Part shown: positions 12,953 to 44,645 of the stretch, piece after piece
How positions within the stretch are numbered: the first letter of the stretch is position 1
Layout: the number at the start of each line of letters is the position of its first letter
Source of the DNA: a virus
DNA: 64,000 nucleotides
Virus record (IMG/VR): IMGVR_UViG_3300013125_000002
Strand: one strand, 5' to 3'
Position numbers and translations under genes: made by a program
Notes under the pieces: generated by a model
What the model was told of the DNA's origin: nothing
Databases searched by the model: none
What the model saw: only the letters and a program-made list of their open reading frames with translations

Positions 12953-14398
12953 CTACGACGGCATCTGACCGATGTTGATCATGCGGAGCCACTTCTTCGG
13001 CGCGAACATGATCGGGGTCCCGTAGAGCAGGATCATCCAGCGGTAGGCCGGAGCCAGAACCGCCAGGTCGAGCCGCATCATCGGGGCCAGCTGCCGGAAG
13101 GTGAGGACGTTCGGGGTCAGCTCACCCATGTAGGCGATGCTGGTGAACGACAGGAGGAAGTTCACGTCGTTCACCACGGTGTTGCCACCAGCCGCCTGCG
13201 AAGCTGCCGGAACCTGCATGATCAGGCTGTAGGAAGCTGCACCAGTCGGGACTGCCGCACCCGATGCCATGGGGGCTGTGCGGTAGATGCGGAAGAACTC
13301 GGTCGGGAAGGCACCGATAGCTGCCGCATTGGTCAGGGTGACTGCCACATGCACGCCAGCGTCCTTGTTGACCTGGGTGACATCCTGAACCGCCGCCATG
13401 ACCGGAGAGAAGGCCGACTCACCGAAGCGGTTGCAGGCTGTGCAGACGTAGGCGTAGGAGTTGGTGCCAGCAGCGGCGTTCTTGTTGAAGTCACCGTCCA
13501 CACCAGCCACACCAGTGGTGATCTGCTGCGGAACCGCCGGAGCGTTCGCATGTGTGGCTGCCGACGGTGGGCTCGGAAGCCGACGGATGAAGACATCCGG
13601 GTTGAACTCGATGGTCCCGGCTTGGGTTGCCATCGAGGTGACTGCCTGCCCGATGGTTCCATTGACAGGAGCCGGCAGGTTGATCCGCTCACGCGGATAC
13701 ATCGTCTTGACGAGATCACTCAGAACCCGGGTGCCCAGGAACAGATCCGTTGGGTAGCCGTAGTTCTCGATGATCATGTTCGAAGCTTCCTCGATGTCAG
13801 CTTCCTGCATCGGCTGACCCTCGAGATCGACGAACGAGGTGGCATCGACCAGGGCATCGAGACCATCCCACTGCTCACTCTCGCCGTCGAAAGCAAGCGA
13901 GCTGTCAGCAGTGAAGAGAGCGTTCTCGACACGCTCGAGAAGCCAGAGGATGCCGTTCTGGTTCTCGAGTGCGATCACATCCCAATGCGCCGGGTGAACC
14001 AGCGTGGCTGGATGGGTCACTTCCCTCGTGGTCCCGAGGAACTTCACGAGCTGCGTGCGTCTGGCGTAGTTGCTGTCTGTGCTGGGAGGAAGCTCTCCTT
14101 CCTGCGTGAACGCAAACGCGCCATTGGTGCCGTAGTCGATCAGCTGATTGTACTCCTCAACCGTCGAGTAGGCAGGGCTCTTCGGGATCTTCTTCCAGAA
14201 CTTGATGTGAGAGTTGGAGTACGTCACCACCTTGAGGCTGGCCTCGAGCGACTCCACACGGAGAGCGGAGCCACCCGTCTGGTTGGTCAGCTGATAGCCG
14301 GCCTCAAGAGCCTTCGACAACTCGGCCACATCCATGGCGGGTGCGGAACCGAAGCCGTTCAGCCCTTCGTAGTGACGCAGCGAAATCTGTCCGTACAT
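12953..14398 (-). CDS. Major capsid protein (SPO1/Twort/Herelleviridae-like)
   Basis: SKALEAG..TGGSALRVESLE..LK, PAYSTVEEY, LAPMMRLDLA..ILLYGTPIMFAPKKW motifs; follows scaffold and protease. Confidence 0.9.
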   Translation of the reverse strand: MYGQISLRHYEGLNGFGSAPAMDVAELSKALEAGYQLTNQTGGSALRVESLEASLKVVTYSNSHIKFWKKIPKSPAYSTVEEYNQLIDYGTNGAFAFTQEGELPPSTDSNYARRTQLVKFLGTTREVTHPATLVHPAHWDVIALENQNGILWLLERVENALFTADSSLAFDGESEQWDGLDALVDATSFVDLEGQPMQEADIEEASNMIIENYGYPTDLFLGTRVLSDLVKTMYPRERINLPAPVNGTIGQAVTSMATQAGTIEFNPDVFIRRLPSPPSAATHANAPAVPQQITTGVAGVDGDFNKNAAAGTNSYAYVCTACNRFGESAFSPVMAAVQDVTQVNKDAGVHVAVTLTNAAAIGAFPTEFFRIYRTAPMASGAAVPTGAASYSLIMQVPAASQAAGGNTVVNDVNFLLSFTSIAYMGELTPNVLTFRQLAPMMRLDLAVLAPAYRWMILLYGTPIMFAPKKWLRMINIGQMPS

Positions 14399-15453: not shown

Positions 15454-16332
15454 CTAGTTCCGGTTGATCTCAAAGACCGCTTCAGTCAGGACGATGGACT
15501 CGGTTCTTGAAAGTCCACGTTCCCTGTGAAGCAGATCCACACACTCATCGAATGAGAGTGACTTGTTTGCCCACTTCTGATCTCTGACCTTGGAGTCAAG
15601 ACTTTCAGGAACCAACGCCGCACCACTGGAAGTCGTAAACGCCTTCTGCTCATCCTCAGTCTTGTTCAGATCGAGATCACCCTCGTTCGAGGGAGCCTCT
15701 ACGATGCCCTTCTTGCAGGCGCCACAAGGCTTCTTGCAAACGCAAGCGACCGACTTTCCAAGTGCAGTCTCCGGCATGATCAATCCGGATTGATCATGTA
15801 CACACCACATATCAGCTGGAACTGCGTTCAGAGACTTCACAACGTCCAGCCATGTGTGGGTGTTGATCGGTGCAGCAGTGATCGCGATATCCTGAATCCA
15901 GCACTTCAGGATGCGACGACCCGCCCGACGGATGACCTTGCCTTGGATAGAGAAACCGAGCTTGCGAGTAGAGCCTGAGGCAGCGAGAGCGTTGGCCAAC
16001 TCCCAGATCGCATCAGCGACCTTGTGGGTGCCAGGCTCCCAAAGAAAGCCCTTGGTCCAAAGACCTTCTTTGGTGATCCTTGCTTCAGTTGGCTGACCGA
16101 CTTTGTTCTCAAAACCGGGCTTGTGGTCGTTATTGTAGTACCCGTACTGCAGAAAGTACTCAGTATCGATCCCACGTTGCTCAACGATCTCAGTCTGAAG
16201 ATCTTCATCCTCGGTGGAGGAGATGCCCTGAACCCACCGAGTGTGGCCGAGAGTCTTCTTGGCTGTGTCGCTCTTGTTGATATCGAGCGGTAGCCAGAAG
16301 TCAAACTCGTTACTTTTGATGAGATCAATCAT
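15454..16332 (-). CDS. Prohead maturation protease
   Basis: GISSTEDEDLQTE, YYNNDH, LGFSIQG, AITAAPIN motifs of HK97/Herelleviridae-type proteases. Confidence 0.88.
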   Translation of the reverse strand: MIDLIKSNEFDFWLPLDINKSDTAKKTLGHTRWVQGISSTEDEDLQTEIVEQRGIDTEYFLQYGYYNNDHKPGFENKVGQPTEARITKEGLWTKGFLWEPGTHKVADAIWELANALAASGSTRKLGFSIQGKVIRRAGRRILKCWIQDIAITAAPINTHTWLDVVKSLNAVPADMWCVHDQSGLIMPETALGKSVACVCKKPCGACKKGIVEAPSNEGDLDLNKTEDEQKAFTTSSGAALVPESLDSKVRDQKWANKSLSFDECVDLLHRERGLSRTESIVLTEAVFEINRN

Positions 16333-16426: not shown

Positions 16427-16455
16427 AACCTACTGGTTCTAGAAATAGCTGTCAA
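16427..16455 (-). promoter_or_regulatory. Sigma70-type promoter upstream of protease-scaffold-capsid
   Basis: TTGACA-17 nt-TAGGTT; spacer contains the recurrent CTAGAACCAG motif. Confidence 0.55.
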
Positions 16456-17018: not shown

Positions 17019-20000
17019 CTATGCCGTCACGAAGAGCCCCAAGCTCTTACGAACAGGCTTCTGAGGTGCAGAGGCCGCCTTCTCTTTGGCCTCACGAATC
17101 GCATGGAGCACTTCCTTGCGCTTCTCAGGCATCATCTGAGGCTTTGTCACCATGCCCGGAGAGGTTGCTCGGATGAAATCCATCTGCCGGTGCAGATTGT
17201 CCCAATGAGCGTGTTCAAAGGGACTGTCTGTGTGGCGATAGGTGTAGATGTCAAGTTGATCACCCAACTTCGGGTCACGAGCTGCCCGACCGTGAGCCTG
17301 GAGAAGAGTCGCTGCGTCATCTGGAGCACCAACAACGTGGAGTGTGTCAGCCTCCTGAAGGTTGTGCCCAGCTGCAGTATCCTTGTCGATGATCACAACA
17401 GGAATCTTGTACTCACCCTTGACGTACTTACCGGTCTTGTCATCGATCCTGTCTGAGTCTTCTTTCCACATCTTCTTCCGAGCATCGACAACTGTCCCCT
17501 TGAGCTGACCTCCATCCTTGATGTCCTTGGTCAGTAGCTCAGGGTTCTTCGCATCTCGCAGTGAGGTTGCCATACTGACATTGGCAATTCCCGCCTGATC
17601 AAGTGCATGTTGTACAGCTGCTGCCTGCTGGGGAGAGCTGACCACTACAATGTGCTTTCGCTTCTTGCCAGAGATCTTCTCACGCTTCTCTGTCTTCCCC
17701 TCATGCCGAATGCGAACTCCACCCTGGATCTCAGCCTTGAGGTTATGGACCAAAGACTGAATCTTGGGGTTGTCATCAGGATCAGCAGCATCGACATTGA
17801 GCCGATGAAGATTGGCAATCTCATTCTCAGCGTTCTGTCTTGCCCTCTTCATCTGTTCTCTACGACCGGCGGGATCATCTGCACTGATCTTGGCATACTT
17901 GATTCTTCTGCCATCCTCGGTCGTGAGAATGCCACCCTTCTGGGCCTTGTCCTGATGCTTCTTGTAGACAGCAGCCTGCTGAGCTTCGATCTGCTTCTGA
18001 GACACTCTTTGGATATCAGAACGGCGTACATGCACATCGTGATGATTGATCTTGAAGGAGACCTTCTTGACATCGTCACCACTCACATATGGACCGATCT
18101 GGTCCATGATGTCTCTGGCAAGAAGGTCACGCTGAGCGCTCGTGCTACCACCCTCGAGCTGCTTGAACATCTCGTAGGGGATGAATGGCCGAGGCTGGGC
18201 ACTCTTCTTCCCGACCTGGCGGCCTGCCTCCTTCTCATAGACTGGACGCATTCTCCCAGTTGGCTCTTTGGTCTTAGGGTTCACTGTCTCCTTGTAGATC
18301 GGAGCACCCTTCTCATCTACGGCAGGACGCTGCGCTGACCAGCGCACAAGATCATAGGCTTCACGAAGATTCTCACGAGCCGGAGTCGCTGTGAGGGCCA
18401 CTTTGTGCGTGGAAGGAATGCTGAAGATGCGCTTACCGATGTTCATTCGGTTGCGCCCACGCAGACCCAATAGCATCTGCGGTTCATCCACAACGATCCC
18501 ATTCGGTGGGCGACCAGAACCACCCATCTGGCGCTCGAGATACTCATTGTTCTCTGCTGCCGACTGGTGGTTCATGACAAAGATGGCGTGCTTGAGATGC
18601 TTCGTCTGCTTGAGCAGACTGTCGATTTGCCCCTTTGAGTAATGCTCCGGGACCTCGACGATATAGGCTCGACCTTCACCCTGCTTGGGGAGCTTGGGGT
18701 CGACAAACTTCCCTGTTGGCTCTTTGTTCTTGTCGAGGACTGGCTTCCAGTGAACGATGCTGATCTTCTCAGGATCGAAGAACTTTGCAGCCTCCTGGAC
18801 CCACTCACTGACCTTTGCTGGTGGAACGATCACCACCCCACGATAACCAGCGTTGGGACCCTTCATGTCTTGGTCGACTCGAGCCCCAAGATAGCCCAAC
18901 CCCGTCAGTGTCTTGCCAGCAGCAGTTGATCTGGTGATGACTCCACCACCACTTTGCATCAGCCAACGAATATCTGTCGCTTGGTTGCCACGTAGCTTCT
19001 CCCCAGACTTGAGCTGAGGCAGAATCTCCTGAGCAGTCCCAAGTCCACCTTTGGACAAGGGCTTGTCAATCCAGTCATTGGTCTTTTCGTTGATCTGAGA
19101 AGTGTCGTCCTTGATCGCGTTCAGCTTGGATGCCTTCTGCGCATCCTGTACCCACCGCTCAAGGTGAGGCACAAGTCTCTCACCACGGAATCGAATCGTT
19201 GCTCCCTCAGGCCCCGTCTCGACTGCGACCTCTTCACGTGACTTGATGCCCAAGCTCTTCAGCTTCTCGCGAACCAGCTTCTCTTGTTCACCCTCAGACA
19301 AGCCCTCTCCACCCACATGCATGGATAGGTCTCGGAGATCCTCATTGGCCTCACGACCTCGACGAACAGACTTCAGAGAGTAGAGGAACCCAGCAGCTGT
19401 CTGGAGACCACCAATCGTCTCTCCGACTAGCTTCTCCTGCTCATCCAGATAGCGGTTGTCCATCTGAAGAGCTGCCATTCGATCCCGAAGACCTTCGGTG
19501 TCGATCTTCTGGACATTCCTGGTGCTGAGTCCTGCTTTCTTCAGACGCTCGATCAACTCATCGTTGACAGCGATATCCCCCGAAGCCATCTGCTCACGCA
19601 AGACCTTCTGCGCATCTTCGATCTCGCCAAGCCTCTGAAGCGCACGCTCCTCAGCTGCATGTTGATTCACGCGATTCCACATCGTGATGTCGTGAACCAT
19701 CTGATCATAATGCTCGAGCGTGAACTTCTCTCGCTTGCCTGTCTTTGGGTTAGAGATGGTTGTAGTACCCTTCTCTGCTAGATCGTGAAGGTACGAAGCC
19801 ATGGCATAAGAGGCCAACTCTGGCCCAAGACTGTCGGTTAGCTTCTTCAGATCTGGGACACCCAGACCTGGAGCAAAACCAGACACAAACCCTGTGAGAG
19901 TGCTTGTGGCACCGTCATTCATGTAGCCCTTGACATTGCCGCCCGTCTCGTCTTTCCAGTGGGAAGCAAGAGCTTTGTAAAGGTTGGTCTCCCTGGGCAT

Positions 20001-21374
20001 CGACGCTGCTGTCTCTCGAATGTTGGATGCAGCAGCATAGATATCCTTCTCATCGATTCCCATGTCGAGAAGGTCCTGGTGATCAACAAGCACTGCGTGA
20101 AGACGCATCTCTTCTACGTCAGGATCCATGCCCTCTGGTTGTCTGGACGCATAGACCGCCTTCCGCTTCACATCTTCGATCTTCCTATCATAGGCATCGG
20201 TCTGTTTGAGTGTCTGAACCAGACTCTCAGCAGTCTTTTGCGCTGCTAGGATTTCTTTCTGATCCTTGATAGGAAGCTTAGGCTCCGAGGGGCGAATGGA
20301 AAGGTCCACAGCACCTGGCCCTGATAAGGCTTCACCACCACGCATCTGAGCCTCATGGATCTTGTCATCCATGATGTCGTGCATTGCGACCTGAACTTCC
20401 TGAGGGGTCTCAGCGTCAGCAAGCTTGTTGATATCCTCCCCCGAGAGGTTCATGTCGAGGTGCATCTCAGACGTGAAGTCTTTGACGTTGAGCTTGGGCT
20501 CTTTGCCCTGTTCAACTTGCTTCTTGGCGTCCTGCAGAGCCTCGATGGTCTTTCCCAGTACCTCTGATGCACGATCTCTCTTCTCTGACTTCATACGAGA
20601 AATGGCAAGATCGACTGCACCATCGATCTTCTTTTCATCCAGACCTGCTTGTCGAAGCTGTGTTGCGAGATGCTCCTTCACTCCCTCGAGCTGTTGGCCG
20701 AACAATGAAGCCGCATCTTTTCGGATACCCACGGCACCAAGCACATTGTCCTTCAGCCTCTTGGCTTGGCGCATCAGCTTTTTCTTGAGAGGAGCAGCCT
20801 CATCATGGATCTTCTTGATGTGTTCCTTGACCTTTGATTGCTTCTGAGTCGCCTCCATTTCCTCTGGAGTCGGAGGGGCCTTGGACTGCCGATCACCCAT
20901 CTTGGAAGCGAAGTGAAGATACTCTGCCCCCTTCCCACCAGTGACTCGTTCTTTGCCTGTCTCTGGATCAGTCTCTTTTTGTGGAGGCACTACACCAGCC
21001 CCACCCACAATAGCAGCCTTGTTGTCCGGTAGCCTGGCTACAAGAACGTGTCGATGAGACAGAGGTCCAGACTGAGGGGTACACCAGAAGGTACTCCCCA
21101 CTGGAACACTACTGATGACAATCTTGCCCTGCCCGTCCAGCTCAGGTCGGACTGGGGCTCCGTACCTGGCTCTGATCTTCGCGAAGTGGGCCTTCTCCTG
21201 GTGGCTGTACTGCTTCGCCTTCAGAAGGGGCTCCTCCGTTGGCAGCAGCTTCCTGCTCTTCTGAATCTCCTGCAGGCTCTTCCCAAGCAGATTGAGGAGT
21301 CGATTCGTCTGCGGGTCCACTACGATCAGTGGAATCAAGCTCGTCCTCTGCGTCAACATCATCCGGCTCCTCAT
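17019..21374 (-). CDS. Large SF2/SNF2-like helicase-domain protein (DarB/polyvalent type); start uncertain
   Basis: Motifs TAAGKT, VVDEPQ, LTATP, AAGHNLQ, QAHGRAAR. Confidence 0.8.
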   Translation of the reverse strand: MRSRMMLTQRTSLIPLIVVDPQTNRLLNLLGKSLQEIQKSRKLLPTEEPLLKAKQYSHQEKAHFAKIRARYGAPVRPELDGQGKIVISSVPVGSTFWCTPQSGPLSHRHVLVARLPDNKAAIVGGAGVVPPQKETDPETGKERVTGGKGAEYLHFASKMGDRQSKAPPTPEEMEATQKQSKVKEHIKKIHDEAAPLKKKLMRQAKRLKDNVLGAVGIRKDAASLFGQQLEGVKEHLATQLRQAGLDEKKIDGAVDLAISRMKSEKRDRASEVLGKTIEALQDAKKQVEQGKEPKLNVKDFTSEMHLDMNLSGEDINKLADAETPQEVQVAMHDIMDDKIHEAQMRGGEALSGPGAVDLSIRPSEPKLPIKDQKEILAAQKTAESLVQTLKQTDAYDRKIEDVKRKAVYASRQPEGMDPDVEEMRLHAVLVDHQDLLDMGIDEKDIYAAASNIRETAASMPRETNLYKALASHWKDETGGNVKGYMNDGATSTLTGFVSGFAPGLGVPDLKKLTDSLGPELASYAMASYLHDLAEKGTTTISNPKTGKREKFTLEHYDQMVHDITMWNRVNQHAAEERALQRLGEIEDAQKVLREQMASGDIAVNDELIERLKKAGLSTRNVQKIDTEGLRDRMAALQMDNRYLDEQEKLVGETIGGLQTAAGFLYSLKSVRRGREANEDLRDLSMHVGGEGLSEGEQEKLVREKLKSLGIKSREEVAVETGPEGATIRFRGERLVPHLERWVQDAQKASKLNAIKDDTSQINEKTNDWIDKPLSKGGLGTAQEILPQLKSGEKLRGNQATDIRWLMQSGGGVITRSTAAGKTLTGLGYLGARVDQDMKGPNAGYRGVVIVPPAKVSEWVQEAAKFFDPEKISIVHWKPVLDKNKEPTGKFVDPKLPKQGEGRAYIVEVPEHYSKGQIDSLLKQTKHLKHAIFVMNHQSAAENNEYLERQMGGSGRPPNGIVVDEPQMLLGLRGRNRMNIGKRIFSIPSTHKVALTATPARENLREAYDLVRWSAQRPAVDEKGAPIYKETVNPKTKEPTGRMRPVYEKEAGRQVGKKSAQPRPFIPYEMFKQLEGGSTSAQRDLLARDIMDQIGPYVSGDDVKKVSFKINHHDVHVRRSDIQRVSQKQIEAQQAAVYKKHQDKAQKGGILTTEDGRRIKYAKISADDPAGRREQMKRARQNAENEIANLHRLNVDAADPDDNPKIQSLVHNLKAEIQGGVRIRHEGKTEKREKISGKKRKHIVVVSSPQQAAAVQHALDQAGIANVSMATSLRDAKNPELLTKDIKDGGQLKGTVVDARKKMWKEDSDRIDDKTGKYVKGEYKIPVVIIDKDTAAGHNLQEADTLHVVGAPDDAATLLQAHGRAARDPKLGDQLDIYTYRHTDSPFEHAHWDNLHRQMDFIRATSPGMVTKPQMMPEKRKEVLHAIREAKEKAASAPQKPVRKSLGLFVTA

Positions 21375-24300
21375 GATCCGTCTCAGGGTTCGGGAGATCT
21401 AGCTTCCCACCCGCCATCTGATTCAGGTACTGCCACTCATGCTCACTCTCGTGGAGAGGATGACTGTGCAGCCACTCACTGAAGCCAACCTCGTGGTCAA
21501 ACCGATCTGGTGGATCTGCCACCACAGAATGAGCTGGCACCTCATCATCGTCGCCCGGTTCAGGTTCGTCAATGGACTTGAGCATCTTGCCACGAAGACC
21601 CTTGTCTTTGATCTTCTGCTTGAAGTCATCCAATGACATCTCTGTCAAGCTACCGAAGAACTTGGGGTTATCATACTGTCTGAGGTAGGCGGCCTTGGCT
21701 TCCTCTGGGGAGTCAAAACCAAGCATCACTTTGTCCTCATCGAACTCAGTGAAGTCTGGCTTCTTCATCTGGTGAATCACAAAGACCCGCTCAGAGTTCT
21801 TGTGTGGCCCCATGTAAACATCCACGGCATCCCCATCGACCCCCTTTGACCCACTCACATAGCCGTAGTCGTAGTTCATCTTGGTACGACCATGCTCTTT
21901 GGCATTAGGGTCATACCACTCGCGATAAGAACCCTTCTTGTTCTCAATCGCAATGTTCATGCCCTCATACTTGATCCGACCCATGAGGGGATGAGCCTTC
22001 TGCATGTCAGGATCAATGGCATTCATCCAAAGTGACTTAACCGCCACCGGATCGATGTAGCTCCGAAGAGCTGTAGCTGCGTGGGCCTTGCGGTCCTCAC
22101 CCTTACCGATGTAGTGGCCCAGAGCCTTTGCTGACTCAAGGGCCGCTTCCTCTGTCACACCCGAAAGGGTCTTGGCTGTAATCCGCCCCTGGCTGTACTG
22201 CTGGAGCAGTCTCTCAAAAGCTCGAGAGAAGATCTCCGTACCATGATAGGTGCGGAACTGCTTGGGCGTGACACCCAAGGTGGCCAAGGTTCTTCGAAGC
22301 TTATTGTACCCAATCTCTTGGAACTTGACCTGAGAGCCACGACGCACAGGCACTGAGAAGAGGTAGTCCGTTCTCTTCTTCCCCTCAGCCAGTGTCAGCT
22401 CCTGCAAGATCGACATCGACTTGGGATCGAGAACTACAACCTGCTGTTGGTCGACGCCCAACTTGCCAACGTAGGAAAACGTCGCCATGTTGCCTTTGAT
22501 CTTGACGTTCCCTACTTTGAGGGTCGTCAGACCAATCGTGCCCCTCTCTTCCTCATGGATCTTCCTACCAGCGCGCATGTAGGCTTGATCCAAAAGAGCA
22601 ACCATGAGCCCCAGTGCCCGATGCGCCAATTGCTTCGACTGCATCAGAGAACTATAGAACTTCCTCACCTTTGGGAGCTGCTGATCAAAGTGACGATTGT
22701 CCTGATTGAACTTCAACTCATCTCGCTCACGGAGATCACTATCGTAGTACCCGTGTTCGAAATGGGAGGTCTCGTCATTTGGGTCTGCCCGCCACCTGGC
22801 CCCCCACATCCGCAACGGAACAGCCTTGTTGTACTCTGGGTTCCATTCCGCATGCTCCGGAACGGCACGGTTCATCTTGCGACCTGAACGAGGATCGAAG
22901 AACTGCGGGTGTTGAATGGGATCAGGTTCGTCTCGATGTAGCTGTGGCGTTCCTAGCTTCTTGTCATAATGGGCATGCCCCACCGGAGCATTCGTTCCCT
23001 GAATGACATTCCCCACATGATCTCGGTAGTAATACCGATAGCTTCCAGGAACTCCCTCCCGTCTCCAGTACTTGTAGTGCTGGGAACGGGTGCCCTTCTG
23101 GGCTTTGCGGAGGATATCGAGAGCCTTCGAGAGACGATTCATGCTGAGGCTCTGCAGCAGCTGAATTGCCTTCGCCACAGGGGATAGTTTTGCCTGCATC
23201 GCTTGAAACTCCGGTAGGCCAGACAGCTTCTGATGAGCACTCAAGAAGAGATCAACCAGCTGGCTCTCTGTCGGGGGACGAGGAAACTCTCGTGTGTGCT
23301 TTGTGGCCAACTCAGCTGTGACCTCAGTAAATGGCCTGATGTTCTGGAGGTCTCCCTTGGGGGCCAAGGTCAGAATAGCGGCTCGCTCAGCTGCTGTGAG
23401 CAACGGATGCTGCTTGACCATCGTGACCCAAGAGTGCTTCTCCGATCCCGATAGCTTCTGAACCTTTGGCTCCTCAACTTCACGCTCAAAGGGTTCAACA
23501 AACTCATCCCCACCCTCTGACTGCCAATGGACAATGAAAGCTTGAGCTTGCTCAGGTGACTTGATCTCCTTCAATTCATGCAAAGCCAGAAATGAAGTGA
23601 CCTGTCTCTCATGATCTGCAGTGTCCGAAGCTACGTATTTGGCCAAACGATCTTCTTGTCTTCCTGACCACTCCTGCAGCGATTCTTCACGAGCAATCAG
23701 ATCATCTTCCGCTGACTGAGCATGAGCACCCTCACTGACAATCTCCTCATGGCCAGGTGGCAATTCTTCTCGGCTCACTTGGTCCAGTACGTCCATGGTT
23801 CGACCACTGTGGTCTACAGTCGAGATGAACTTACGTCGCTCTTTGACCTCGTCGAGGATCGCCTTGGTCTCTTTGAAGTGCTCCCACCACAAACAGTGTC
23901 CAAGGTAGGTACTGAATCGCCATCCCTTCTGGGGATCATAAGAGTTGACTGCACGTTTCACGGCCCGAAGCGTGGGGGAGTCAGGGTCAATCTCAATCTT
24001 CTTGGCTCTACCTGGCCCTCCATAGTAACCAAGGAGACGAGCCATGTTTCCAGGATCAAATACGTTATAGAGTGTCAGCTGACGCTGAGCAGAGAGAACC
24101 GCCAATCCGAAATGCTCTCGGATGATGTTCGCGCAGAGCTTCAGCTGCTCAGCCTCTGAGGCCTTGAGCTTGCGCACCCAGCGCAGACCTCTCCGCTGCC
24201 ACGGCTGCCCTGTCTGTCTCTTGACCGTGGCCTGGTAAGGCTCAAGGACTCGATGCCAGGTGAGTCTTCCCTGTTCCAGTGCTGTTGTGGTGGGTCGTAC

Positions 24301-24999
24301 CTGATCAATAGGAAACTCTTTGGCCGGCTTGACTCGCTGACCCGATGCCCGCTGCTGTCGGTACTCTTCCTTCAGCCACTCCTTGAAGTTCTGCTTGAAG
24401 AATGGACTTGGGACCCAGCTACCTGTTTGCTCTGGAAACCGATTGAACGGACTCTCGGCATGGTAGCGAATCGACATGCGCCCACTCGGAGAATCGATCC
24501 CCGACTGGCCTCGTTCCCTCACCTCAAACCAGGGTCTGCCAAAAGCGTCGTTGACCGTTGCAGTTGACGACCGACGACGCATCCAATTCTCAACAGCCTC
24601 GTAAGAGGGCAGATGAGTTACCGCATCTCGTGCTTTCGTACTACGGTGCGGAAGGATGATGAAGGGGCGCTTTGCTGAGGGCCTGACAACGAGCTTCAGC
24701 TCAGGCTTACCCTCTGCTGAGCGGATGATCGACACATCATCAGCACCCGACTTGAGGGCTTTCTCTCGTGCATGGTGGAACGCTTGCTCTGCTGTGTGCC
24801 CTCGAGCAACTGAATCCGAATGAGTGGTAACGGAGTGCTCATCTGAAACAGCAGAGGCTGCCCACCCATGGTTCTTTGGATGTCTGAGATCAGAGTACTT
24901 GTAGTTCCAGCGGTCGTTTTTCCACCACCGCAGAACATACTTCCCGCCTAGATGTTCCCCTCGGTGAGCTTTGACTAAATCGATCCAAAGAGCGAACAC
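21142..24999 (-). CDS. Polyvalent protein: sigma70-like + DNA topoisomerase IB + inorganic-pyrophosphatase-like (InPase) domains
   Basis: YDPQKGWRFSTY; RAG..GLTTL..GK..KQFRTY..LGH..SYIDP; IENKKGS..YGYV..GVDGDAVDV..FDEDKVMLGF. Confidence 0.85.
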   Translation of the reverse strand: MFALWIDLVKAHRGEHLGGKYVLRWWKNDRWNYKYSDLRHPKNHGWAASAVSDEHSVTTHSDSVARGHTAEQAFHHAREKALKSGADDVSIIRSAEGKPELKLVVRPSAKRPFIILPHRSTKARDAVTHLPSYEAVENWMRRRSSTATVNDAFGRPWFEVRERGQSGIDSPSGRMSIRYHAESPFNRFPEQTGSWVPSPFFKQNFKEWLKEEYRQQRASGQRVKPAKEFPIDQVRPTTTALEQGRLTWHRVLEPYQATVKRQTGQPWQRRGLRWVRKLKASEAEQLKLCANIIREHFGLAVLSAQRQLTLYNVFDPGNMARLLGYYGGPGRAKKIEIDPDSPTLRAVKRAVNSYDPQKGWRFSTYLGHCLWWEHFKETKAILDEVKERRKFISTVDHSGRTMDVLDQVSREELPPGHEEIVSEGAHAQSAEDDLIAREESLQEWSGRQEDRLAKYVASDTADHERQVTSFLALHELKEIKSPEQAQAFIVHWQSEGGDEFVEPFEREVEEPKVQKLSGSEKHSWVTMVKQHPLLTAAERAAILTLAPKGDLQNIRPFTEVTAELATKHTREFPRPPTESQLVDLFLSAHQKLSGLPEFQAMQAKLSPVAKAIQLLQSLSMNRLSKALDILRKAQKGTRSQHYKYWRREGVPGSYRYYYRDHVGNVIQGTNAPVGHAHYDKKLGTPQLHRDEPDPIQHPQFFDPRSGRKMNRAVPEHAEWNPEYNKAVPLRMWGARWRADPNDETSHFEHGYYDSDLRERDELKFNQDNRHFDQQLPKVRKFYSSLMQSKQLAHRALGLMVALLDQAYMRAGRKIHEEERGTIGLTTLKVGNVKIKGNMATFSYVGKLGVDQQQVVVLDPKSMSILQELTLAEGKKRTDYLFSVPVRRGSQVKFQEIGYNKLRRTLATLGVTPKQFRTYHGTEIFSRAFERLLQQYSQGRITAKTLSGVTEEAALESAKALGHYIGKGEDRKAHAATALRSYIDPVAVKSLWMNAIDPDMQKAHPLMGRIKYEGMNIAIENKKGSYREWYDPNAKEHGRTKMNYDYGYVSGSKGVDGDAVDVYMGPHKNSERVFVIHQMKKPDFTEFDEDKVMLGFDSPEEAKAAYLRQYDNPKFFGSLTEMSLDDFKQKIKDKGLRGKMLKSIDEPEPGDDDEVPAHSVVADPPDRFDHEVGFSEWLHSHPLHESEHEWQYLNQMAGGKLDLPNPETDHEEPDDVDAEDELDSTDRSGPADESTPQSAWEEPAGDSEEQEAAANGGAPSEGEAVQPPGEGPLREDQSQVRSPSPT

Positions 25000-25779: not shown

Positions 25780-26679
25780 TCACACCTCAGGGAAAGCTTC
25801 CTCAGGTCGCAACAGAGTGAAGCGACCCATATCATTCCAACCCCAACCAGGGGGCACGTATCTCAAACGCCCAAAGCAGTGTGGGTGCAGCGGAGGCACC
25901 ACCGGCTTGGCATGCAATCTCCAAGGTCTCTGGTAATTCGTTCCCTCATTCTCCAACAGCTCCTTGAGCTTGAAGATCTTTGGGTTCCCAGTCTTGGGAT
26001 CGTAATAGATTCGCCGACAGTCATCACACATATCGGCATCATGTACAATAGCCACATCACTGTCGATCCCATCAGAGTCAGCGTAGATACCCTCCTTCTG
26101 AGAGATCGCAGTCATCACTCCACGCTGCTTAGCTGTGTGCAACTCTGTAGCAGCCAACCTCTCCCAGTTCCGATGAGGTTCCTTCAGAGCCTCCACTAGC
26201 TCTCTGGCTACTTGTCGATAAGTCTGATTTAGATCAGTACCAGTCTTGATCTTGTCAGAAATTGTAGACCTAACATGCCCTTCGGTTACTGTACGATGAG
26301 TCGCTTGTGCAAGTCTCTGGTAGAGACCATTCTTGATGTCGTCCATCAGACTGCGAAACTCAGTCTGAGCCGACAGCTCTGCCGCTTTGATCTGCAGCTT
26401 ATCTACGTCCGTGTAGCGACCAGTTGCTACTTCCTGGAGCTGCTTCCAGGTGAGCTTCTTGAACTCGGCCTCCTTGAGCAGAGATTGAAGCTTCCCAAGG
26501 ACGTAAGCATAGCGAATAGCTGATGCATTAACATCCATCGGAAGCTTACCGCTGGCCTTCAGATCATGGAGATCCTTCTCAGTGATCTCCTGATCCCCAA
26601 ACATCCTCCACATGAGCCATGTGGTGTGACAACGGATGATCTCGGCCAGCTTCTCAATCTGTGCTCTGGAGAGAACCAT
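25780..26679 (-). CDS. MuF/SPP1 gp7-like minor head protein
   Basis: RLAATE, CDDC and PPLHPHCFGRL motifs; head module position. Confidence 0.8.
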   Translation of the reverse strand: MVLSRAQIEKLAEIIRCHTTWLMWRMFGDQEITEKDLHDLKASGKLPMDVNASAIRYAYVLGKLQSLLKEAEFKKLTWKQLQEVATGRYTDVDKLQIKAAELSAQTEFRSLMDDIKNGLYQRLAQATHRTVTEGHVRSTISDKIKTGTDLNQTYRQVARELVEALKEPHRNWERLAATELHTAKQRGVMTAISQKEGIYADSDGIDSDVAIVHDADMCDDCRRIYYDPKTGNPKIFKLKELLENEGTNYQRPWRLHAKPVVPPLHPHCFGRLRYVPPGWGWNDMGRFTLLRPEEAFPEV

Positions 26680-28793: not shown

Positions 28794-30077
28794 CTACATA
28801 GCCACCCAAAGACTGAGACTCTTCTCCGTCTTCTTGGCCTGTTCACGTTCACGTTCACGAAGCCGTTCTTTCCGAATCACGTCCTTCTGTTTGGCTTGAG
28901 CCGGCTTCAGTCCTTCCTCATAGGCAGCATGAGCTGTCTCTGATCCCTTCACACCCTCACGACGCCTATCCATGAAAGACTGGAGATCTCCGATGCTCAC
29001 CACCCGCGCGATCTTCTTCCCACTACCCTCTTCTGCCATCCGATGATGAATCTCACTTCTTCTGGTTGCATGGGCCTGGAGGAGCTGCTGCTCAAAAGCA
29101 CGAGCATCCTTGGCAGAAAGACCAAGGGCTTGAGTCTCAGCCTCATTCGTAGGTATCCCTGCCCGAACCAGGTGAGTCTTGTACTTCTCGCGAAGCTCCT
29201 TGAGAGCGGCCTCTTCATTCTTGGCTTCGCGATTCGACTCTCGCTCTCGCCTCTCGACAGTCGAGACCCCCTCAGCCTTGATCCTCTCTTCGGCTGCTCT
29301 TGTAGAGACTGCTTGCTTGGCTTCATGTTCACGAACCAGACGCTTCTCTTCCTCTGTTCTCTGGTGGGGCTCTTTCTTGAGCGCTTGCTTCAGCGTCTTA
29401 CCAAGAGCCTTCTCGTGCTCTTTCCGGAGCTGGGAGCCCTCTCCAGGCTTCGGAGGGGCAAACTTGCCGACTACCTTCCGAACGACTACATGGTGCTGTT
29501 CAAAGCACTCTGGGCAGAGCTTCTGTGCAACAGCTGCTGGGTCTGGGGGGTCGATGGATTCCCGCTGCCCAGCCTTGGGGCCTTGTGTGTGAAGAAGAGT
29601 GACCGCAGTCTTCCGTTCTGTGACCTCTTCCACTCGGGTCTTGTTCCCCGTTGCAGGGTTCTCGATCTCTCTGACTTCAACTGTGGGCTTGTTGTGCTCA
29701 GGAAGAACAATCGCCTTGCAAGATCGACAGAAGTAGGATGGCCAGTGGCTTGATGTCTGTGCCTGGATGAACGCACGGGCACTGCGCTTGTCCTCTCTAG
29801 TCTTGGGAGAACGAAGACGCATCACCTGTTGGAACTCCTTTGGAAGTTCCTTCTTTCCAGGAACGATCTCCACTTGGACATCACCATGATCCGACGATAG
29901 ATGCGGAACATCCATCGCATTGGTGACAACCAAGGGCGGACTCTTCCCTGGGTAGATCTTCTCCCCAGTCACTGACAGATAGTACCGACCTCCCCGAGGG
30001 CCTGTCTGGTTCGGCTCTTTTTTGGCCTTCAGCAGGTCTACAGAGAGATCAAACAGTTGTGTAGCTGTGAGCAGCAT
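28794..30077 (-). CDS. Hypothetical protein with GPRGGRYY motif and CxxC pairs (candidate internal head protein)
   Basis: 427 aa; LLKA near N-terminus, TEKS near C-terminus. Confidence 0.6.
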   Translation of the reverse strand: MLLTATQLFDLSVDLLKAKKEPNQTGPRGGRYYLSVTGEKIYPGKSPPLVVTNAMDVPHLSSDHGDVQVEIVPGKKELPKEFQQVMRLRSPKTREDKRSARAFIQAQTSSHWPSYFCRSCKAIVLPEHNKPTVEVREIENPATGNKTRVEEVTERKTAVTLLHTQGPKAGQRESIDPPDPAAVAQKLCPECFEQHHVVVRKVVGKFAPPKPGEGSQLRKEHEKALGKTLKQALKKEPHQRTEEEKRLVREHEAKQAVSTRAAEERIKAEGVSTVERRERESNREAKNEEAALKELREKYKTHLVRAGIPTNEAETQALGLSAKDARAFEQQLLQAHATRRSEIHHRMAEEGSGKKIARVVSIGDLQSFMDRRREGVKGSETAHAAYEEGLKPAQAKQKDVIRKERLREREREQAKKTEKSLSLWVAM

Positions 30078-30081: not shown

Positions 30082-31068
30082 TCACCCGCAGCGCGGACAC
30101 CTCATGGTGTTGTCGCTTTTCTTCACCATCTGCCCACCACAACTCTTGCAGCACTGTGACTTGTTGATGACGCAGGTTGGGCACTCACCAAAGCTCTTGG
30201 CGAATGCACGACCGCAAGCTCCACACCTGATGTGCTCATGGGCCTTGGCGATCCGATGGGTACGCTCCGCCTCATCCTGCTTCAGCTCGTCGATGAGCTG
30301 GGGAGTGAGTGGACCTGTTGCAAGAGCCGAGATGTCCTTGGTGACAAGAGCACTACCCGACTCGAACGTTGAGCGGTGAGCAAGTGCTCGAGGGAGACGA
30401 GGCACCGAACGGGCTGTCACCGCCTTCTCAAGATCCGATTTCTCCACTGCCTTACTGATCTCCATCAGCTCATCGAAAGACTTGTTCATGGACTTTTCCT
30501 TGCTGAGGCCCGCCTGATGGAGCCCGATTGCAACAGCTTGCTTCTCACCACCTGGATGGCGGCCAAGGTGATGCATGTGGTGTGCGATCATCTCTGATGC
30601 CATCTCTTGTTTGGCATCTGTCTTCCTGGGCGGCTTCTTGATCTGACCATCCTTGGTCTTGTATCGAGCGATCCTGGAAAGGGAACCCTTAGGGTCCTTC
30701 GTTCCGTAGTGACGCCCATAGTGCTTCTCTGCTGCCTTTTCCAACTGATTCAGGCTGGCAGTCATACTCCCCGAAGCGACCGGAGCAGGTAGGGGCGTAG
30801 GTACAGCTCGTTGAAAGCCAAGATCCTTCATGTCCATGACCGTACCCTCAGCTATGGCTTTCTTTGCCGTCGGTGGGCTGACGATGTCTTTGACTTCTTT
30901 CGAAGGCAGAGCACCAAACTGATGAGAAGGCTTACCGACCGGTGTTCCGGCTCTCATAGCACCAGAACCCGAATAGGATGCTCCCTCTTTTCCGATCTTC
31001 ACTTCCCCCAGATATGCCTTCTGCTCATCCTCTGCCCAACTACCGAGGTGAATTGGCTGCTTTGGCAT
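30082..31068 (-). CDS. Hypothetical protein with C-terminal double zinc ribbon
   Basis: CGACG..CPTC..CKSCG..CPRCG; start at MPKQ (GGAG RBS). Confidence 0.6.
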   Translation of the reverse strand: MPKQPIHLGSWAEDEQKAYLGEVKIGKEGASYSGSGAMRAGTPVGKPSHQFGALPSKEVKDIVSPPTAKKAIAEGTVMDMKDLGFQRAVPTPLPAPVASGSMTASLNQLEKAAEKHYGRHYGTKDPKGSLSRIARYKTKDGQIKKPPRKTDAKQEMASEMIAHHMHHLGRHPGGEKQAVAIGLHQAGLSKEKSMNKSFDELMEISKAVEKSDLEKAVTARSVPRLPRALAHRSTFESGSALVTKDISALATGPLTPQLIDELKQDEAERTHRIAKAHEHIRCGACGRAFAKSFGECPTCVINKSQCCKSCGGQMVKKSDNTMRCPRCG

Positions 31069-32905
31069 CGGTCTTACTCCGCTGCTGGTCGATGAAGTCG
31101 TCAAATGTGACGACGATCTCCCTCATGGACTTGTTGAAGTTCGCAGCATACTGCGGAGTCTCCGACTGCCCTGGAACTGGAGTGGCTCCTGGTGGAAGAC
31201 TTTGTTGACCAGGCACACCACCAACCTGCTGCTCTGCACCCTCAGGCAGCTGCCCTTGGGCTCCCGCCATCTGCTGTTGCTGTGCATCTTGCTGTTGCAT
31301 CTGTTGCTGCTGCATTGCCATCTGCTGCTGTTGTTGCTGTTGCTGGGCAAATAGCTGTAGCAGCTGCACGTAGGTCGGGTTGATCGGGACATCACCAAGA
31401 GGAATGTCAGGGAGATCAAGCGAGCGTCGCGCTTCATTGAGAGTCATGTAGCTCGCGATCTGCTCCTTGAGCATCTCATGCTTTTCCTGCTCCGAAAGCT
31501 CATCGAGGCCTACGAACTCAAACACGAAGTGGTCATCGATCTTGTCAATGACATGACGATTGATCATCTTCGCAATGAAGCGAAGCAGTGGCTTGAGGCC
31601 ACGATCACGAGAAGCCTTGAGCTTCCACTCCTGCGACGACTCAAAGAGCGGGGTCTGTTGCACACCACCATGAAGATCGAAGTTGATTTCAGCAGGGTCG
31701 ATCAGAAAGACACCACAGGTGATCTTGATCAAATACTCGATCCAAGAATTGAACTCCATGTCCTTGTTGGTCATCTGGAGCCCAATCCACTCGATACCCT
31801 CTGACTGAGTGATCGGTGTCTTCCATGCGTTCTCTACACCCGAGACTGAAGCAACCCACTGGCGACGAAACGCCTCCAGCTGATCTGGGGTCCAGTTGTC
31901 ACCCTTGAAGTTCAGGATGCCTTTTGGATGTGAACCCTGTGTGAAGTATCGCTTGTTGTACTCCTCCGCAAAGAGAAGAGAAGTCACAATGGTGATGAGC
32001 TGTTCGATCTCACCAAATCCATAACCCTGGATGTAGATGTCCGTGCGCGGATTCCGAATGCCGAAAGTTAGCTCGTCCAGGCTGTAGACATTCTCGATCT
32101 GCCCATTGATGATCTGAACGTACTGGACATCCTTGTCGGTCAGAGGATCTCTCGACCCATACTGCTGTCCAGCGTAGAGACCAGCAAATCGCCCAGTCAG
32201 TGGTGCCACAGGATTGCGAACGTGATAGCTGAACCCCACACCAGCATCACGGTCTGTTGAGGCCAGTCGGATGGTCGAGGCATCAACCGCCAGAAACTCA
32301 AACGGGATGCCGTTATTTCTAGGGACTACCTCGAACGTCACTTGATCATAGTAGAGAGTATCTCTAACGATCTTCTTGAGAAACGCTTCGAAGTCGTCTC
32401 GAGGACCACGACTGTACGGGTTCTGGCGGCCAGGCTCACCACAATCGAGGACAAATGCCTCCAACTGCTTGATGAACTGACGCTCAGCTTCTGTCGTCAT
32501 GTGCTCAGGGTCTTTGTGCTTGATGATGAACCCAAGAGACTTGGTAGTCCGATAGGGCTGAGAGAACGAAGCAACCTGAGCAATTCGCGTATTGACGATT
32601 GCGGCAACGATGGAGAGCTGGTTTGCCACCCGCTTCAGCACATCATAAGTCAACGAGTAGCGACGATCCTTGTACCCCATTGCATACTGAAGAGACAAAG
32701 GATCGAAGAACGCTGACTTGGGGCCACGTTGAGGCTTGCCAGGTGCTACTGCTAGTGCCTTCTGCATAGCTCTAGGATCACCCTTAGCTATGGCCGGAAT
32801 ATGGGCCGTCAGCTCCTTGAGCCTCTGCACCTCTTCGTAGATCGCATCTGGTGACATCGAGATCGACTTCTGGATGTCAGTGTAGTCCACTGCAGGAGCT
32901 GCCAC
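31040..32905 (-). CDS. Portal protein (Herelleviridae-like)
   Basis: FLKKIVRDTLYYDQVTFE, AVDASTIR, IRNPRTD, YFTQG..PKGIL, SRDRGLKPLL, MTLNEAR. Confidence 0.9.
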   Translation of the reverse strand: MAAPAVDYTDIQKSISMSPDAIYEEVQRLKELTAHIPAIAKGDPRAMQKALAVAPGKPQRGPKSAFFDPLSLQYAMGYKDRRYSLTYDVLKRVANQLSIVAAIVNTRIAQVASFSQPYRTTKSLGFIIKHKDPEHMTTEAERQFIKQLEAFVLDCGEPGRQNPYSRGPRDDFEAFLKKIVRDTLYYDQVTFEVVPRNNGIPFEFLAVDASTIRLASTDRDAGVGFSYHVRNPVAPLTGRFAGLYAGQQYGSRDPLTDKDVQYVQIINGQIENVYSLDELTFGIRNPRTDIYIQGYGFGEIEQLITIVTSLLFAEEYNKRYFTQGSHPKGILNFKGDNWTPDQLEAFRRQWVASVSGVENAWKTPITQSEGIEWIGLQMTNKDMEFNSWIEYLIKITCGVFLIDPAEINFDLHGGVQQTPLFESSQEWKLKASRDRGLKPLLRFIAKMINRHVIDKIDDHFVFEFVGLDELSEQEKHEMLKEQIASYMTLNEARRSLDLPDIPLGDVPINPTYVQLLQLFAQQQQQQQQMAMQQQQMQQQDAQQQQMAGAQGQLPEGAEQQVGGVPGQQSLPPGATPVPGQSETPQYAANFNKSMREIVVTFDDFIDQQRSKTDAKAANSPR

Positions 32906-35790: not shown

Positions 35791-35863
35791 CAGTCGATCA
35801 CAATCTGGTTCTAGGATTGCAGGGACCCTCTAACTTGTCAACGATGTTGAAGAATCGGAAGAA

Positions 35864-37000: not shown

Positions 37001-37030
37001 AGGGTAGGCTGGTTCTAGGTAGGTTGTCAA
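37001..37030 (-). promoter_or_regulatory. Sigma70-type promoter
   Basis: TTGACA-18 nt-TACCCT with CTAGAACCAG in the spacer. Confidence 0.45.
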
Positions 37031-39059: not shown

Positions 39060-39767
39060 TCAGGCTGTACGTCGATGCAGGTCCAGGAAGAGGTCGGAAG
39101 GTTCGATGGACAGGATGCGTGCTGCCAGACCTTCCACAGCACTCCTACGCTGCTCTGGTGTGTCTCTATCGACATCCCAGGGCATATCAAGAATCGTGAC
39201 CCCCTGCTGACGCAGAACCGCCACCATGTGGTCAATCTCTCGGTCAAGCATCTTGAGGTACTCGAGGTCGATGCCCCTCTCACACTGCCGACCAGTCTGG
39301 TTCTCCATGCGCCTGCTGATACGACGATTGCAGGTTTCAGGATCAACAAGCACCCGCACGCAAACCGTTGGCAAAAGAACCGAAGCAGTCATGGCATGGT
39401 AGATCGACTGATAGGTTGCAAATTCTCGCTCTGACATGAGACCCATCGTCCGCTGTAGCCGTGCGAAGGCAGTGTCCCCGTAATAGCTGCGGTCCAGAAC
39501 AGCACAGCCCTTCATCTGCATCGCATGCCACTGAGCTAGCTGGTGCATCCGAAAGCGCAGACCAAGAAGATGAAGCTGCATGGTGAGAGACCAACGATTT
39601 GGGTCGCTGTAGTAGTCCGCGAGATAGGGGTTTGCTCCCGCCCTCTCATCAGGCTCTTTCAGAGTGAGGGTTGTCGGTCCTAAGGCAGCCCCTAGTTCAG
39701 CAGAGAGTGTTGACTTGCCCGCTCCGATCAAACCTTCTACAGCAATCACTGGCCGGCTGTCTCTCAT
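39060..39767 (-). CDS. Deoxynucleoside kinase
   Basis: IAVEGLIGAGKSTL P-loop, EP, LDRSYYGD, RISRR lid. Confidence 0.9.
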   Translation of the reverse strand: MRDSRPVIAVEGLIGAGKSTLSAELGAALGPTTLTLKEPDERAGANPYLADYYSDPNRWSLTMQLHLLGLRFRMHQLAQWHAMQMKGCAVLDRSYYGDTAFARLQRTMGLMSEREFATYQSIYHAMTASVLLPTVCVRVLVDPETCNRRISRRMENQTGRQCERGIDLEYLKMLDREIDHMVAVLRQQGVTILDMPWDVDRDTPEQRRSAVEGLAARILSIEPSDLFLDLHRRTA

Positions 39768-42487: not shown

Positions 42488-42529
42488 GAGATCACCTGTG
42501 AACAGTTGGTCATGGTCGATTGTACCAGA

Positions 42530-42604: not shown

Positions 42605-42608
42605 ATAA

Positions 42609-42684: not shown

Positions 42685-42688
42685 ATAG

Positions 42689-42762: not shown

Positions 42763-42766
42763 TTAG

Positions 42767-44643: not shown

Positions 44644-44645
44644 GG

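Follow-up and report, generated by a model that had tools for sequence, protein, structure and literature searches.

To our knowledge, phages start an infection in one of two ways: they rely on host sigma-70 promoters or, like N4, phiKZ and the crAss-like phages, they inject a whole RNA polymerase. Phages also encode free-standing sigma factors, among them SPO1 gp28 and T4 gp55. A further class of cargo, the polyvalent proteins, was predicted by Iyer, Burroughs, Anand, de Souza & Aravind in 2017 to be delivered together with the DNA (PMC5512222); their survey never mentions sigma, and topoisomerase appears in it in a reference title only. Here we describe a gene in a 64,000-nucleotide stretch of viral DNA, IMG/VR record IMGVR_UViG_3300013125_000002 (the window, by which we mean this whole stretch). 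Its product, P0001, joins what is very likely a diverged sigma-70-family module to a type IB topoisomerase and a family-I-type pyrophosphatase domain (InPase). The gene lies among the head genes of a phage of about 150 kb that, judging from its Herelleviridae-like capsid protein and prohead protease, appears to be related to the SPO1 group. There are precedents for polyvalent cargo proteins, for InPase and for the processing of cargo by prohead proteases. What is new is a sigma-70-family module and a type IB topoisomerase as candidate cargo domains, their persistent linkage, a junction code with Lys at P1 tied to a Herelleviridae-type protease, and a leader-plus-hairpin module. In the literature searched, we found no publication on a virion-packaged sigma factor or on a phage-packaged topoisomerase IB.

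P0001 resembles the polyvalent proteins in combining unrelated domains in one chain, in its InPase domain, in its location among head genes and in its MuF-like and SNF2 neighbors (PMC5512222). It differs from them in having no peptidase domain of its own but, at its junctions, a conserved motif that fits the capsid protease. The N4 virion RNA polymerase (vRNAP) and the phiKZ-type virion RNA polymerase likewise carry the needs of the first transcript inside the capsid (PMC5512222, PMC13282480); those phages bring the polymerase, whereas P0001 would bring a specificity or docking factor for the host polymerase and two helper enzymes. An InPase domain also occurs in a virion protein in the portal-InPase fusions (PDB 9b41 gp19; BcepF1, PMC5512222), but in P0001 it stands at the end of a putative cargo polyprotein and not on the portal. 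The T4 internal proteins and the ejection proteins of SPN3US and phiKZ offer a further likeness, with cargo encoded near head genes and a short consensus for the capsid-maturing protease, which we propose here for P0001 as well (PMC5694885, PMC10052503, PMC9026906). Short N-terminal leaders are common among the candidate cargo proteins of this phage, much like the capsid-targeting sequence of T4 internal proteins. The gene and its parts are as follows, with residues numbered as in P0001.

21142-24999, minus strand: whole open reading frame (ORF) of P0001, 1285 residues in a single frame, with 11 homologs of identical architecture
24970-24999, minus strand: N-terminal leader, residues 1-10, ending in hydrophobic-x-K and followed by A; candidate propeptide or targeting peptide, predicted local distance difference test score (pLDDT) about 50
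24214-24969, minus strand: orphan alpha+beta domain, residues 11-262, AlphaFold2 pLDDT 88 and predicted template modeling score 0.74
23824-24168, minus strand: sigma2-like domain (regions 1.2/2.1, insert, 2.2, 2.3-2.4), residues 278-392, from profile, hhalign, VIA and relatives
23518-23712, minus strand: three-helix middle bundle, residues 430-494, sigma3-like by position, from the secondary structure of the model
23188-23451, minus strand: sigma4-like domain, residues 517-604, from VIA matches and Sigma70_r4 language-model clusters
23092-23187, minus strand: sigma/topoisomerase junction, residues 605-636, with hydrophobic-x-K-[A/G] sites K610 and K632; low pLDDT at the end of the model
22729-23091, minus strand: second hairpin (KY..R...Y.Y.Y) and topoisomerase N-terminal region, residues 637-757, recognized by profile
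22000-22728, minus strand: type IB topoisomerase catalytic domain, residues 758-1000, from Pfam PF01028, PDB sequence matches and an invariant pentad
21577-21999, minus strand: junction site K1001 and InPase domain, residues 1001-1141, from Pfam PF18823, ending at a conserved M-[LI]-K-[S/A]
21142-21576, minus strand: C-terminal tail, acidic and variable, residues 1142-1285; most homologs lack it, and some have other modules in its place

The GTG start of the 1285-codon frame abuts the stop of the upstream gene. The start position is the same in 11 full-length homologs (43-59% identity over the N-terminal 760 residues), which carry the same Pfam domains as P0001; because all of them begin at the same place, we consider the gene and its start sound. 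P0001 and these homologs make up the 12-sequence alignment, A1, to which our counts of invariance and conservation refer. Modules follow one another in the order leader, orphan domain, sigma-like module, type IB topoisomerase, InPase and variable tail. The last ~77 codons of the tail overlap the longest possible start of the downstream SNF2 frame (21142-21374, 233 nt, in another frame), and this overlapped part is acidic, poorly conserved and missing from most homologs. The SNF2 N-terminus that it overlaps contains an L-L-K-A motif. When P0001 was compared by tblastn with 50,697 phage records, no deposited phage matched 80% or more of it, and among the matches listed all covered the InPase region only. 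In PHROGs, the InPase part matched 10 families and the topoisomerase part a single family of unknown function (E 7.5e-10).

Two of the domains are identified by standard models. Pfam Topoisom_I (PF01028) matches residues 758-962 with E 6.6e-26 and 91.5 bits, against a cut-off of 23.7. R809, K846, R916, H962 and Y981 are invariant in 12/12 sequences, and we take them, from motif context in the human and vaccinia enzymes, to be the R-K-R-H-Y pentad. Searching PDB sequences with the family profile returned topoisomerase I chains 6z01 (an entry titled only 'DNA topoisomerase I') and 2f4q (Deinococcus), and more weakly 2h7f (variola) and 1a41 (vaccinia). P0001 thus shares with the type IB enzymes 2f4q, 2h7f and 1a41 both the above-threshold PF01028 match and the pentad. 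Unlike the bacterial and poxvirus enzymes, it is a phage protein, is fused to a sigma-like module and a pyrophosphatase, and has a KY..R...Y.Y.Y hairpin ahead of the topoisomerase. Pfam InPase (PF18823) matches residues 1006-1131 with E 2.9e-40 and 137.7 bits, against a cut-off of 26.8, and the acidic residues D1055, D1057, D1060, D1087, E1088 and D1089 are invariant in all 12. The profile found PDB 9b41 gp19, a phage portal with an InPase domain, at E 3.9e-24, and gave weak matches to family I pyrophosphatases across the D-x-D-x-x-D stretch. Judging by these residues, both enzymes look catalytically intact. A reading of the letters and open reading frames made without database searches (the sequence-only reading) had named a type IB topoisomerase with the R-K-R-H-Y set and an InPase domain, and both calls hold.

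The same reading had seen a sigma factor at the N-terminus, on the strength of a region-2 motif and a region-4-like segment. Residues ~278-604 do very likely form a diverged sigma-70-family module made up of sigma2, a helical middle and a sigma4-like part. We rate this origin so highly because several individually weak lines agree. The region-2 motif is present at residues 350-365 and invariant in 12/12. When the A1 profile was run against all PDB sequences, profile positions 305-429 matched sigma factors only, with RpoS best (E 0.003). hhalign placed residues 345-367 on region 2.2 of E. coli RpoS (E 1.4e-4); this stretch is invariant in the family, and region 2.2 is its best-conserved part. 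The whole 2.2-2.3 segment is highly conserved, and of the region-2 aromatics Y365 is invariant, W372 nearly so, and W371 present in most of the 12. Pfam Sigma70_r2 is found at E<=0.01 in three of 37 relatives, at the aligned position, and two relatives, P0089 (30.5 bits) and P0017 (24.5 bits), exceed its 24-bit cut-off. A profile from a wider alignment, A2, gave weaker sigma matches than A1 (E ~0.05); the distant rows of A2 are probably imperfectly aligned.

Structure-based comparisons agree. With an AlphaFold model of residues 262-625 (pLDDT 78) as query, nearly all of the top 50 Foldseek matches in the PDB were sigma-factor chains spanning the whole model (best E 0.016). VIA, which is independent of Foldseek, found matches to sigma2 and then to sigma4 in canonical order. 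Residues 278-385 matched the SigE N-terminal domain (Z 8.0, root-mean-square deviation (rmsd) 3.0, 80/80 aligned) and the sigma70 fragment 1sig (Z 7.9, rmsd 2.2, 71 aligned). Residues 517-604 matched SigF sigma4 (Z 6.8, rmsd 2.1, 57/57), SigR region 4 (Z 6.6, 65/65), and CnrH and SigD4 (Z 6.5-6.7), and several isolated sigma4 structures were covered over their full length at rmsd 2.1-3.9. The region-4-like segment noted earlier (~534-592) falls within this stretch. At least 26 of the 30 nearest named language-model clusters are Sigma70_r2/r4. For the three-helix bundle at 430-494, structure searches returned generic helical-bundle matches only. It is followed by a conserved acidic loop (residues 493-517), with Q493, S494, G496, G497, F500, E502 and P503 invariant, and bundle and loop together occupy the place of sigma3 and the 3.2 linker. 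Profile, relatives, structure searches and language-model neighbors thus uphold the N-terminal sigma call, though no standard hidden Markov model makes it. A complex prediction for the sigma2-like domain with E. coli beta-prime 235-345 scored 0.00, which is uninformative given the stand-in host and the small interface.

P0001 shares with free-standing sigma-70 factors the region 2.2-2.3 signature and the sigma2 fold, followed in the canonical order by an acidic loop and a candidate sigma4 fold. It differs from them in that the module is embedded in a 1285-residue protein behind a 250-residue orphan domain, falls below the Pfam threshold, and is encoded in a head module and not among regulatory genes.

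The orphan domain itself has no convincing structural match: for residues 1-262 the best Foldseek hit in the PDB had E 0.069, the best VIA Z was 5.3, and template modeling scores in the ESM Atlas were <=0.28. It opens with a beta-hairpin, KY..R...W.Y.Y, that all 37 relatives have without change. This hairpin also stands at the start of the topoisomerase part (residues 643-658) and of a neighboring ORF at 28794-30077 (residues ~29-42), and it follows a K-[A/S] motif in three different cargo modules of the phage. Written as KY..R, 5-11 residues, then [WY].Y.Y, the pattern lies at 24940-24895 and 23073-23026 in the P0001 gene. Most of the 97 family proteins have it; we counted 80 such hairpins, of which 73 have a K motif 45 or fewer residues upstream. 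Ahead of the first hairpin, K10 is invariant in 37 divergent relatives and stands at position 7-17 whenever the module is N-terminal; where the N-terminal module sits internally, the same K motif comes before it. Between K10 and the hairpin is a Pro/Ala/Gly-rich spacer, and because this spacer varies greatly in length, K10 behaves as a free linear motif. From these sequence patterns, hairpin and leader together look like a portable leader module.

The head genes around the P0001 gene are these:

31040-32905, minus strand: portal protein, with which the head module begins (Phage_portal in Pfam, E 6.3e-22; phrog_12, E 1.9e-57)
25780-26679, minus strand: MuF-like head morphogenesis gene (9/30 language-model neighbors are Phage_Mu_F clusters)
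17019-21374, minus strand: giant SNF2-like protein, 1451 residues (Pfam SNF2-rel_dom), a conserved syntenic partner
15454-16332, minus strand: prohead protease, presumed to do the processing (matches the protein annotated as procapsid protease in Bacillus phage SP-10 with 42% identity and E 5e-31)
12953-14398, minus strand: major capsid protein (~45% identity to SPO1-like Herelleviridae capsid proteins), with a candidate maturation site after K in L-S-K-A, residues 27-30

The corresponding SP-10 genes are, in order, portal, protease, one hypothetical gene where the scaffold would stand, and capsid protein, without such an insert between the first two. Here portal and protease are ~14.7 kb apart, separated by several genes of unknown function, the MuF-like gene, the P0001 gene and the SNF2-like gene. 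The order portal, MuF-like, ORF259, P0001-type gene, SNF2, protease, scaffold and capsid protein, with further genes after the portal, is kept in IMG/VR contigs L005 and L007. L006 covers it from the P0001-type gene onward, and an ENA contig has the same order. The SNF2 gene closely follows the sigma-like gene in L002 (where they are adjacent), L006 and L007, with two extra genes between them in L001 and L005. In L001, L002, L005 and L007 a MuF-like homolog precedes the sigma gene, and the order MuF-like, sigma-like, SNF2 is kept even in a much more distant contig. That the gene lies near MuF, as first suggested, is weakly supported: the Phage_Mu_F language-model neighbors favor it, but ORF 25780-26679 has no match in Pfam or PHROG. 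The MuF-like genes of L001 (6666-8069) and L005 (7514-8917) are 70% identical to that ORF and carry an additional C-terminal Peptidase_C39, which is another module swap in the cargo block. A RapA-like link of the SNF2 neighbor to RNA polymerase was not supported, the SNF2 search against PDB sequences being uninformative.

The candidate cleavage motif can be tied to the protease through the capsid protein. Its L-S-K-A at residues 27-30 is unchanged in SP-10 and in SPO1 gp6.1, and V-V-K-S of staphylococcal phage 812 falls at the aligned position. Of the phage 812 capsid chains, 5lii (463 residues) includes V-V-K-S, while a later deposit, 9row (439 residues), starts at the S right after the K. 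The deposited chain lengths therefore imply that the mature capsid N-terminus follows that lysine; we found no publication giving a Herelleviridae capsid cleavage site. On this basis, hydrophobic-x-K followed by A or S, cut after K, is the site type we infer for the Herelleviridae-type prohead protease. T4 and phiKZ-like protease sites are of the x-E type. P0001 differs in having Lys at P1, as does the Herelleviridae capsid protein, and in that one chain would yield several enzymes.

Counted as [LIVMF]-x-K-[ASG], the motif occurs 62 times in head-module ORFs against 26 expected (2.4-fold), and 38 times against 31 elsewhere; the scaffold-like protein is extreme, with 15 copies against 2.3 expected. 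In the protease, ORF259, ORF403 and ORF427 it lies within the first ~30 residues, and the early copies in the protease, ORF427 and the small ORF79 are present also in the relatives compared. The capsid protein's copy is further from the N-terminus, and the scaffold's conserved copy is near its C-terminus. Within P0001, K10, K610 and K1001 are kept in 12/12 homologs, K1141 in 10/12, and K632 in 8/12 as aligned, the other four being shifted by a gap. These conserved sites fall at the N-terminus and at module borders, in low-confidence or inter-domain segments. Where the topoisomerase is encoded by a gene of its own, that gene starts at the K632 junction, and several such genes have their own leader and motif. 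The sequence-only reading had listed six K-[A/S] motifs as candidate protease sites at domain junctions. All six exist, and the conserved junction motifs, the capsid match, the head-module enrichment and the starts of the free-standing topoisomerases lend its view indirect support. K625 (L-S-K-A), conserved in 2/12 only, was dropped as a candidate, and the total for P0001 is not above chance, as described below.

The family is widespread and its modules are shuffled. An exhaustive search of 1.8 billion cluster representatives with the N-terminal 760 residues gave 86 relatives. We scored modules with a home-made profile for each in 97 collected proteins, mostly 50%-identity cluster representatives. 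The orphan N-terminal domain was found in 62/97, the sigma2-like segment in 36/97, the topoisomerase N-terminal region in 88/97, the topoisomerase catalytic part in 74/97 and InPase in 32/97. Residues 637-757 are thus the most widely recurring part of the N-terminal 760 residues, and the 74 catalytic parts reveal a widespread, uncharacterized phage topoisomerase IB family. The combinations include proteins with orphan domain and sigma module without topoisomerase (P0089) and free-standing topoisomerases. Some relatives lack sigma or InPase, and others add an S-AdoMet lyase, a GNAT or a Zeta-toxin-like module. Sigma2 and topoisomerase occur together in the 12 close homologs and in ~20 further architectures. 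Long C-terminal extensions follow the K1141 site in homologs P0004, P0009 and P0010. P0004 (1532 residues) carries PF23780, an S-AdoMet lyase of the T3 SAMase type of anti-restriction enzyme. This domain probably sits after InPase and the M-L-K-S site, since the only large extra segment of P0004 lies there, and an enzyme of this type fits an early-acting delivered protein. With four modules in P0001 and a domain make-up that varies among relatives, the family shows the module shuffling that is a hallmark of polyvalent proteins (PMC5512222).

These observations suggest a working model. P0001 would be made late and taken into the prohead, where the protease would cut after the Lys of hydrophobic-x-K-[A/S] at residues 10, 610, 632, 1001 and 1141. 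The products would be a protein of ~600 residues with orphan domain and sigma module, a topoisomerase of ~370, a pyrophosphatase of ~140 and a discarded tail, and the pieces would exit the capsid together with the DNA. Once in the new cell, the sigma-like piece (~residues 11-610) would attach to the RNA polymerase core of the host and initiate or favor transcription of the incoming genome. Supercoils that transcription generates on this long DNA, the rear end of which has yet to leave the capsid, would be relaxed by the topoisomerase, and the pyrophosphatase would clear the pyrophosphate by-product. InPase has been described as a virion-associated polyvalent-protein domain whose proposed task is to remove pyrophosphate in support of early transcription or replication (PMC5512222). 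We are highly confident of the domain identities as assigned and consider packaging of P0001 in the virion likely. Cleavage at these sites is marginally favored, whereas binding of polymerase by the sigma-like module falls slightly short of an even chance, and true promoter-specific sigma activity is doubtful. As for the chain as a whole, a head-module polyvalent cargo that is cut and delivered as a transcription starter kit, we regard the case as evenly balanced.

Several points weigh against this model. Packaging, cleavage, ejection, polymerase binding and a role in transcription are all deduced steps. Pfam searches with N-terminal pieces of 500, 300, 181 and 311 residues gave zero matches at E<=10, and no Pfam model matches the N-terminal 750 residues, so the sigma module is invisible to standard annotation. 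The case for sigma consists of many weak lines (E 0.003-0.016, Z 6.5-8.0), and according to the aligner's notes Z values of this size are frequent for helical models; for the sigma4-like part all Z are below 8, without a sequence-profile match. The main core-binding residues of sigma-70 lie in the first half of the region-2.2 helix. Unlike free-standing sigma factors, P0001 has a short segment in place of that half-helix, as well as ~25 residues inserted between regions 2.1 and 2.2 and a long sigma4 turn of ~10 residues, after which the last, recognition helix is poor in basic residues. The replaced half-helix and the atypical recognition helix weaken the case for classical sigma function. With regard to cleavage, the 7 motifs in P0001 compare with 4.2 in shuffled sequences (p ~0.1), which is not significant, and we rejected the count as evidence for this protein alone. 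K610 is modeled inside a helix, little sequence separates the M-L-K-S site from the natural C-terminus in most homologs, and the conserved K-A pairs could be structural.

If the K-[A/S] pairs are indeed structural features or leader remnants and not cut sites, P0001 might act as an uncleaved tether, the sigma-derived module docking on RNA polymerase or promoter-like DNA and holding topoisomerase and pyrophosphatase at the transcribing enzyme. The helix around K610 suits this explanation. So does the order orphan domain, sigma2, topoisomerase and, in part, InPase, which is common to the 12 close homologs and the ~20 further architectures; because it persists in divergent representatives, the fusion itself may be selected. 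N4 vRNAP, moreover, is packaged unprocessed despite a peptidase domain (PMC5512222). We nevertheless find a tether unlikely, given that the same motif marks the maturation position of the capsid protein, that the topoisomerase and the N-terminal sigma modules also occur as separate genes (P0089, P0016 and others), and that the variable-length spacers after K10 argue for a free linear motif. The missing first half of helix 2.2 could mean lost core binding. In another reading, the sigma2 and sigma4 folds would steer the topoisomerase to sites on the phage genome without contacting RNA polymerase. Each fold can bind DNA alone, sigma2 the single-stranded -10 element and sigma4 duplex DNA (PDB 3ugo is among the matches). 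But P0089 has the N-terminal and sigma modules without any topoisomerase, and conservation is highest in region 2.2, which sigma factors turn toward the polymerase and not toward DNA; such a targeting module is very improbable.

We give equally little credence to a polymerase decoy, in which a degenerate sigma occupies the host core polymerase or displaces host sigma and so shuts off host transcription. The promoter-reading parts do look degenerate, with a non-canonical sigma4 helix-turn-helix and a changed 2.4 helix, and interference with host sigma is common among phages (PMC13282480). However, a few cargo copies would face thousands of polymerases per cell and make an ineffective stoichiometric blocker, and a low copy number would better suit a specificity factor and two enzymes. 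The high conservation of the melting-region aromatics and the 2.2-2.3 segment is also as expected for a working surface. SPO1 and its relatives use phage sigma factors after infection, and the P0001 gene sits in a late-type operon. The protein might accordingly be no cargo at all, its packaging being something we only infer, and instead serve late in the cell, for example as a sigma-enzyme fusion for transcription, replication or concatemer processing, with its place in the head module accidental. This too is very unlikely in our view: the reported occurrences of InPase are confined to polyvalent or virion proteins of the phage type and to portal fusions (PMC5512222; PDB 9b41 match), the position between portal and protease beside MuF-like and SNF2 genes is conserved, and leader and K-[A/S] motif are common to the protease, ORF427, ORF259, ORF403 and, further in, the capsid protein.

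If the starter-kit model is right, an injected sigma-like factor would give phages a third way, and a cheaper one, to take control of host transcription at once. The fusion hints that transcribing an entering, end-anchored genome may need local supercoil relief and pyrophosphate removal. The motif, hydrophobic-x-K before A or S, is a candidate code for predicting capsid cargo in SPO1-related phages. In its strongest form, the model has a tailed phage pre-loading its capsid with its own sigma, as a protease-cut polyprotein with a type IB topoisomerase and a pyrophosphatase beside a giant SNF2 ATPase. We hold this version tentatively and think it rather doubtful; if true, host RNA polymerase would be reprogrammed upon DNA entry, by the first sigma factor known as virion cargo. 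In poxviruses, a type IB topoisomerase that boosts early transcription is packaged in the core along with an early transcription factor and SNF2-type ATPases. By analogy, the packaged poxvirus enzyme appears to be the nearest functional counterpart, a striking parallel, and P0001 would belong to a bacterial-virus version of the poxvirus virion-packaged early transcription system.

Other features of the window are noted here for their own sake. A 10-mer, CTAGAACCAG, occurs in six exact copies on the minus strand (16433-16442, 35805-35814, 37009-37018, 57382-57391, 57578-57587 and 57665-57674), all intergenic and on the coding strand, where by our estimate ~0.1 would be expected by chance. If one mismatch is allowed, the number rises to 10, where 4 would be expected. 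Three of the exact copies are grouped at 57.3-57.7 kb, and the rest precede the protease operon and the genes that end at 35790 and 36972; TTGACA stands just upstream of three copies. From sequence and position, CTAGAACCAG may be a promoter or operator element specific to the phage, and the sigma-like protein might recognize it. At 62824-63522 (minus strand), a 232-residue ORF has a weak match to the C-terminal helix-turn-helix of extracytoplasmic-function sigma factors (Sigma70_ECF, 21.8 bits, E 2e-4) and may encode a separate small transcription regulator.

The gene immediately upstream of the portal gene, at 32909-34000 (minus strand), encodes a ferritin/rubrerythrin-like protein of 363 residues (Pfam E 4.2e-21) that carries L-S-K-S at residue 8. 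Downstream of the capsid gene are two tandem giant proteins on the minus strand, 1642-6390 (1582 residues) and 6394-11049 (1551 residues), with Laminin_G_3/concanavalin-like lectin domains; they are probably fiber or decoration proteins.

An array of 45 tRNA genes (42528-50374, minus strand) covers 20 amino-acid identities with several isoacceptors each and is interrupted by a few ORFs. One of these, at 42886-44538 (minus strand), encodes a Ro60/TROVE protein with a vWA domain (Pfam E 1.8e-58 and 4.7e-42). The usual partners of Ro60 are Y RNAs, and a phage Y-RNA-like gene may lie near this one. Flanking the start of the array on the minus strand are genes for a deoxynucleoside kinase (39060-39767, E 8.6e-33) and an HNH endonuclease (41978-42556, E 1.2e-16).

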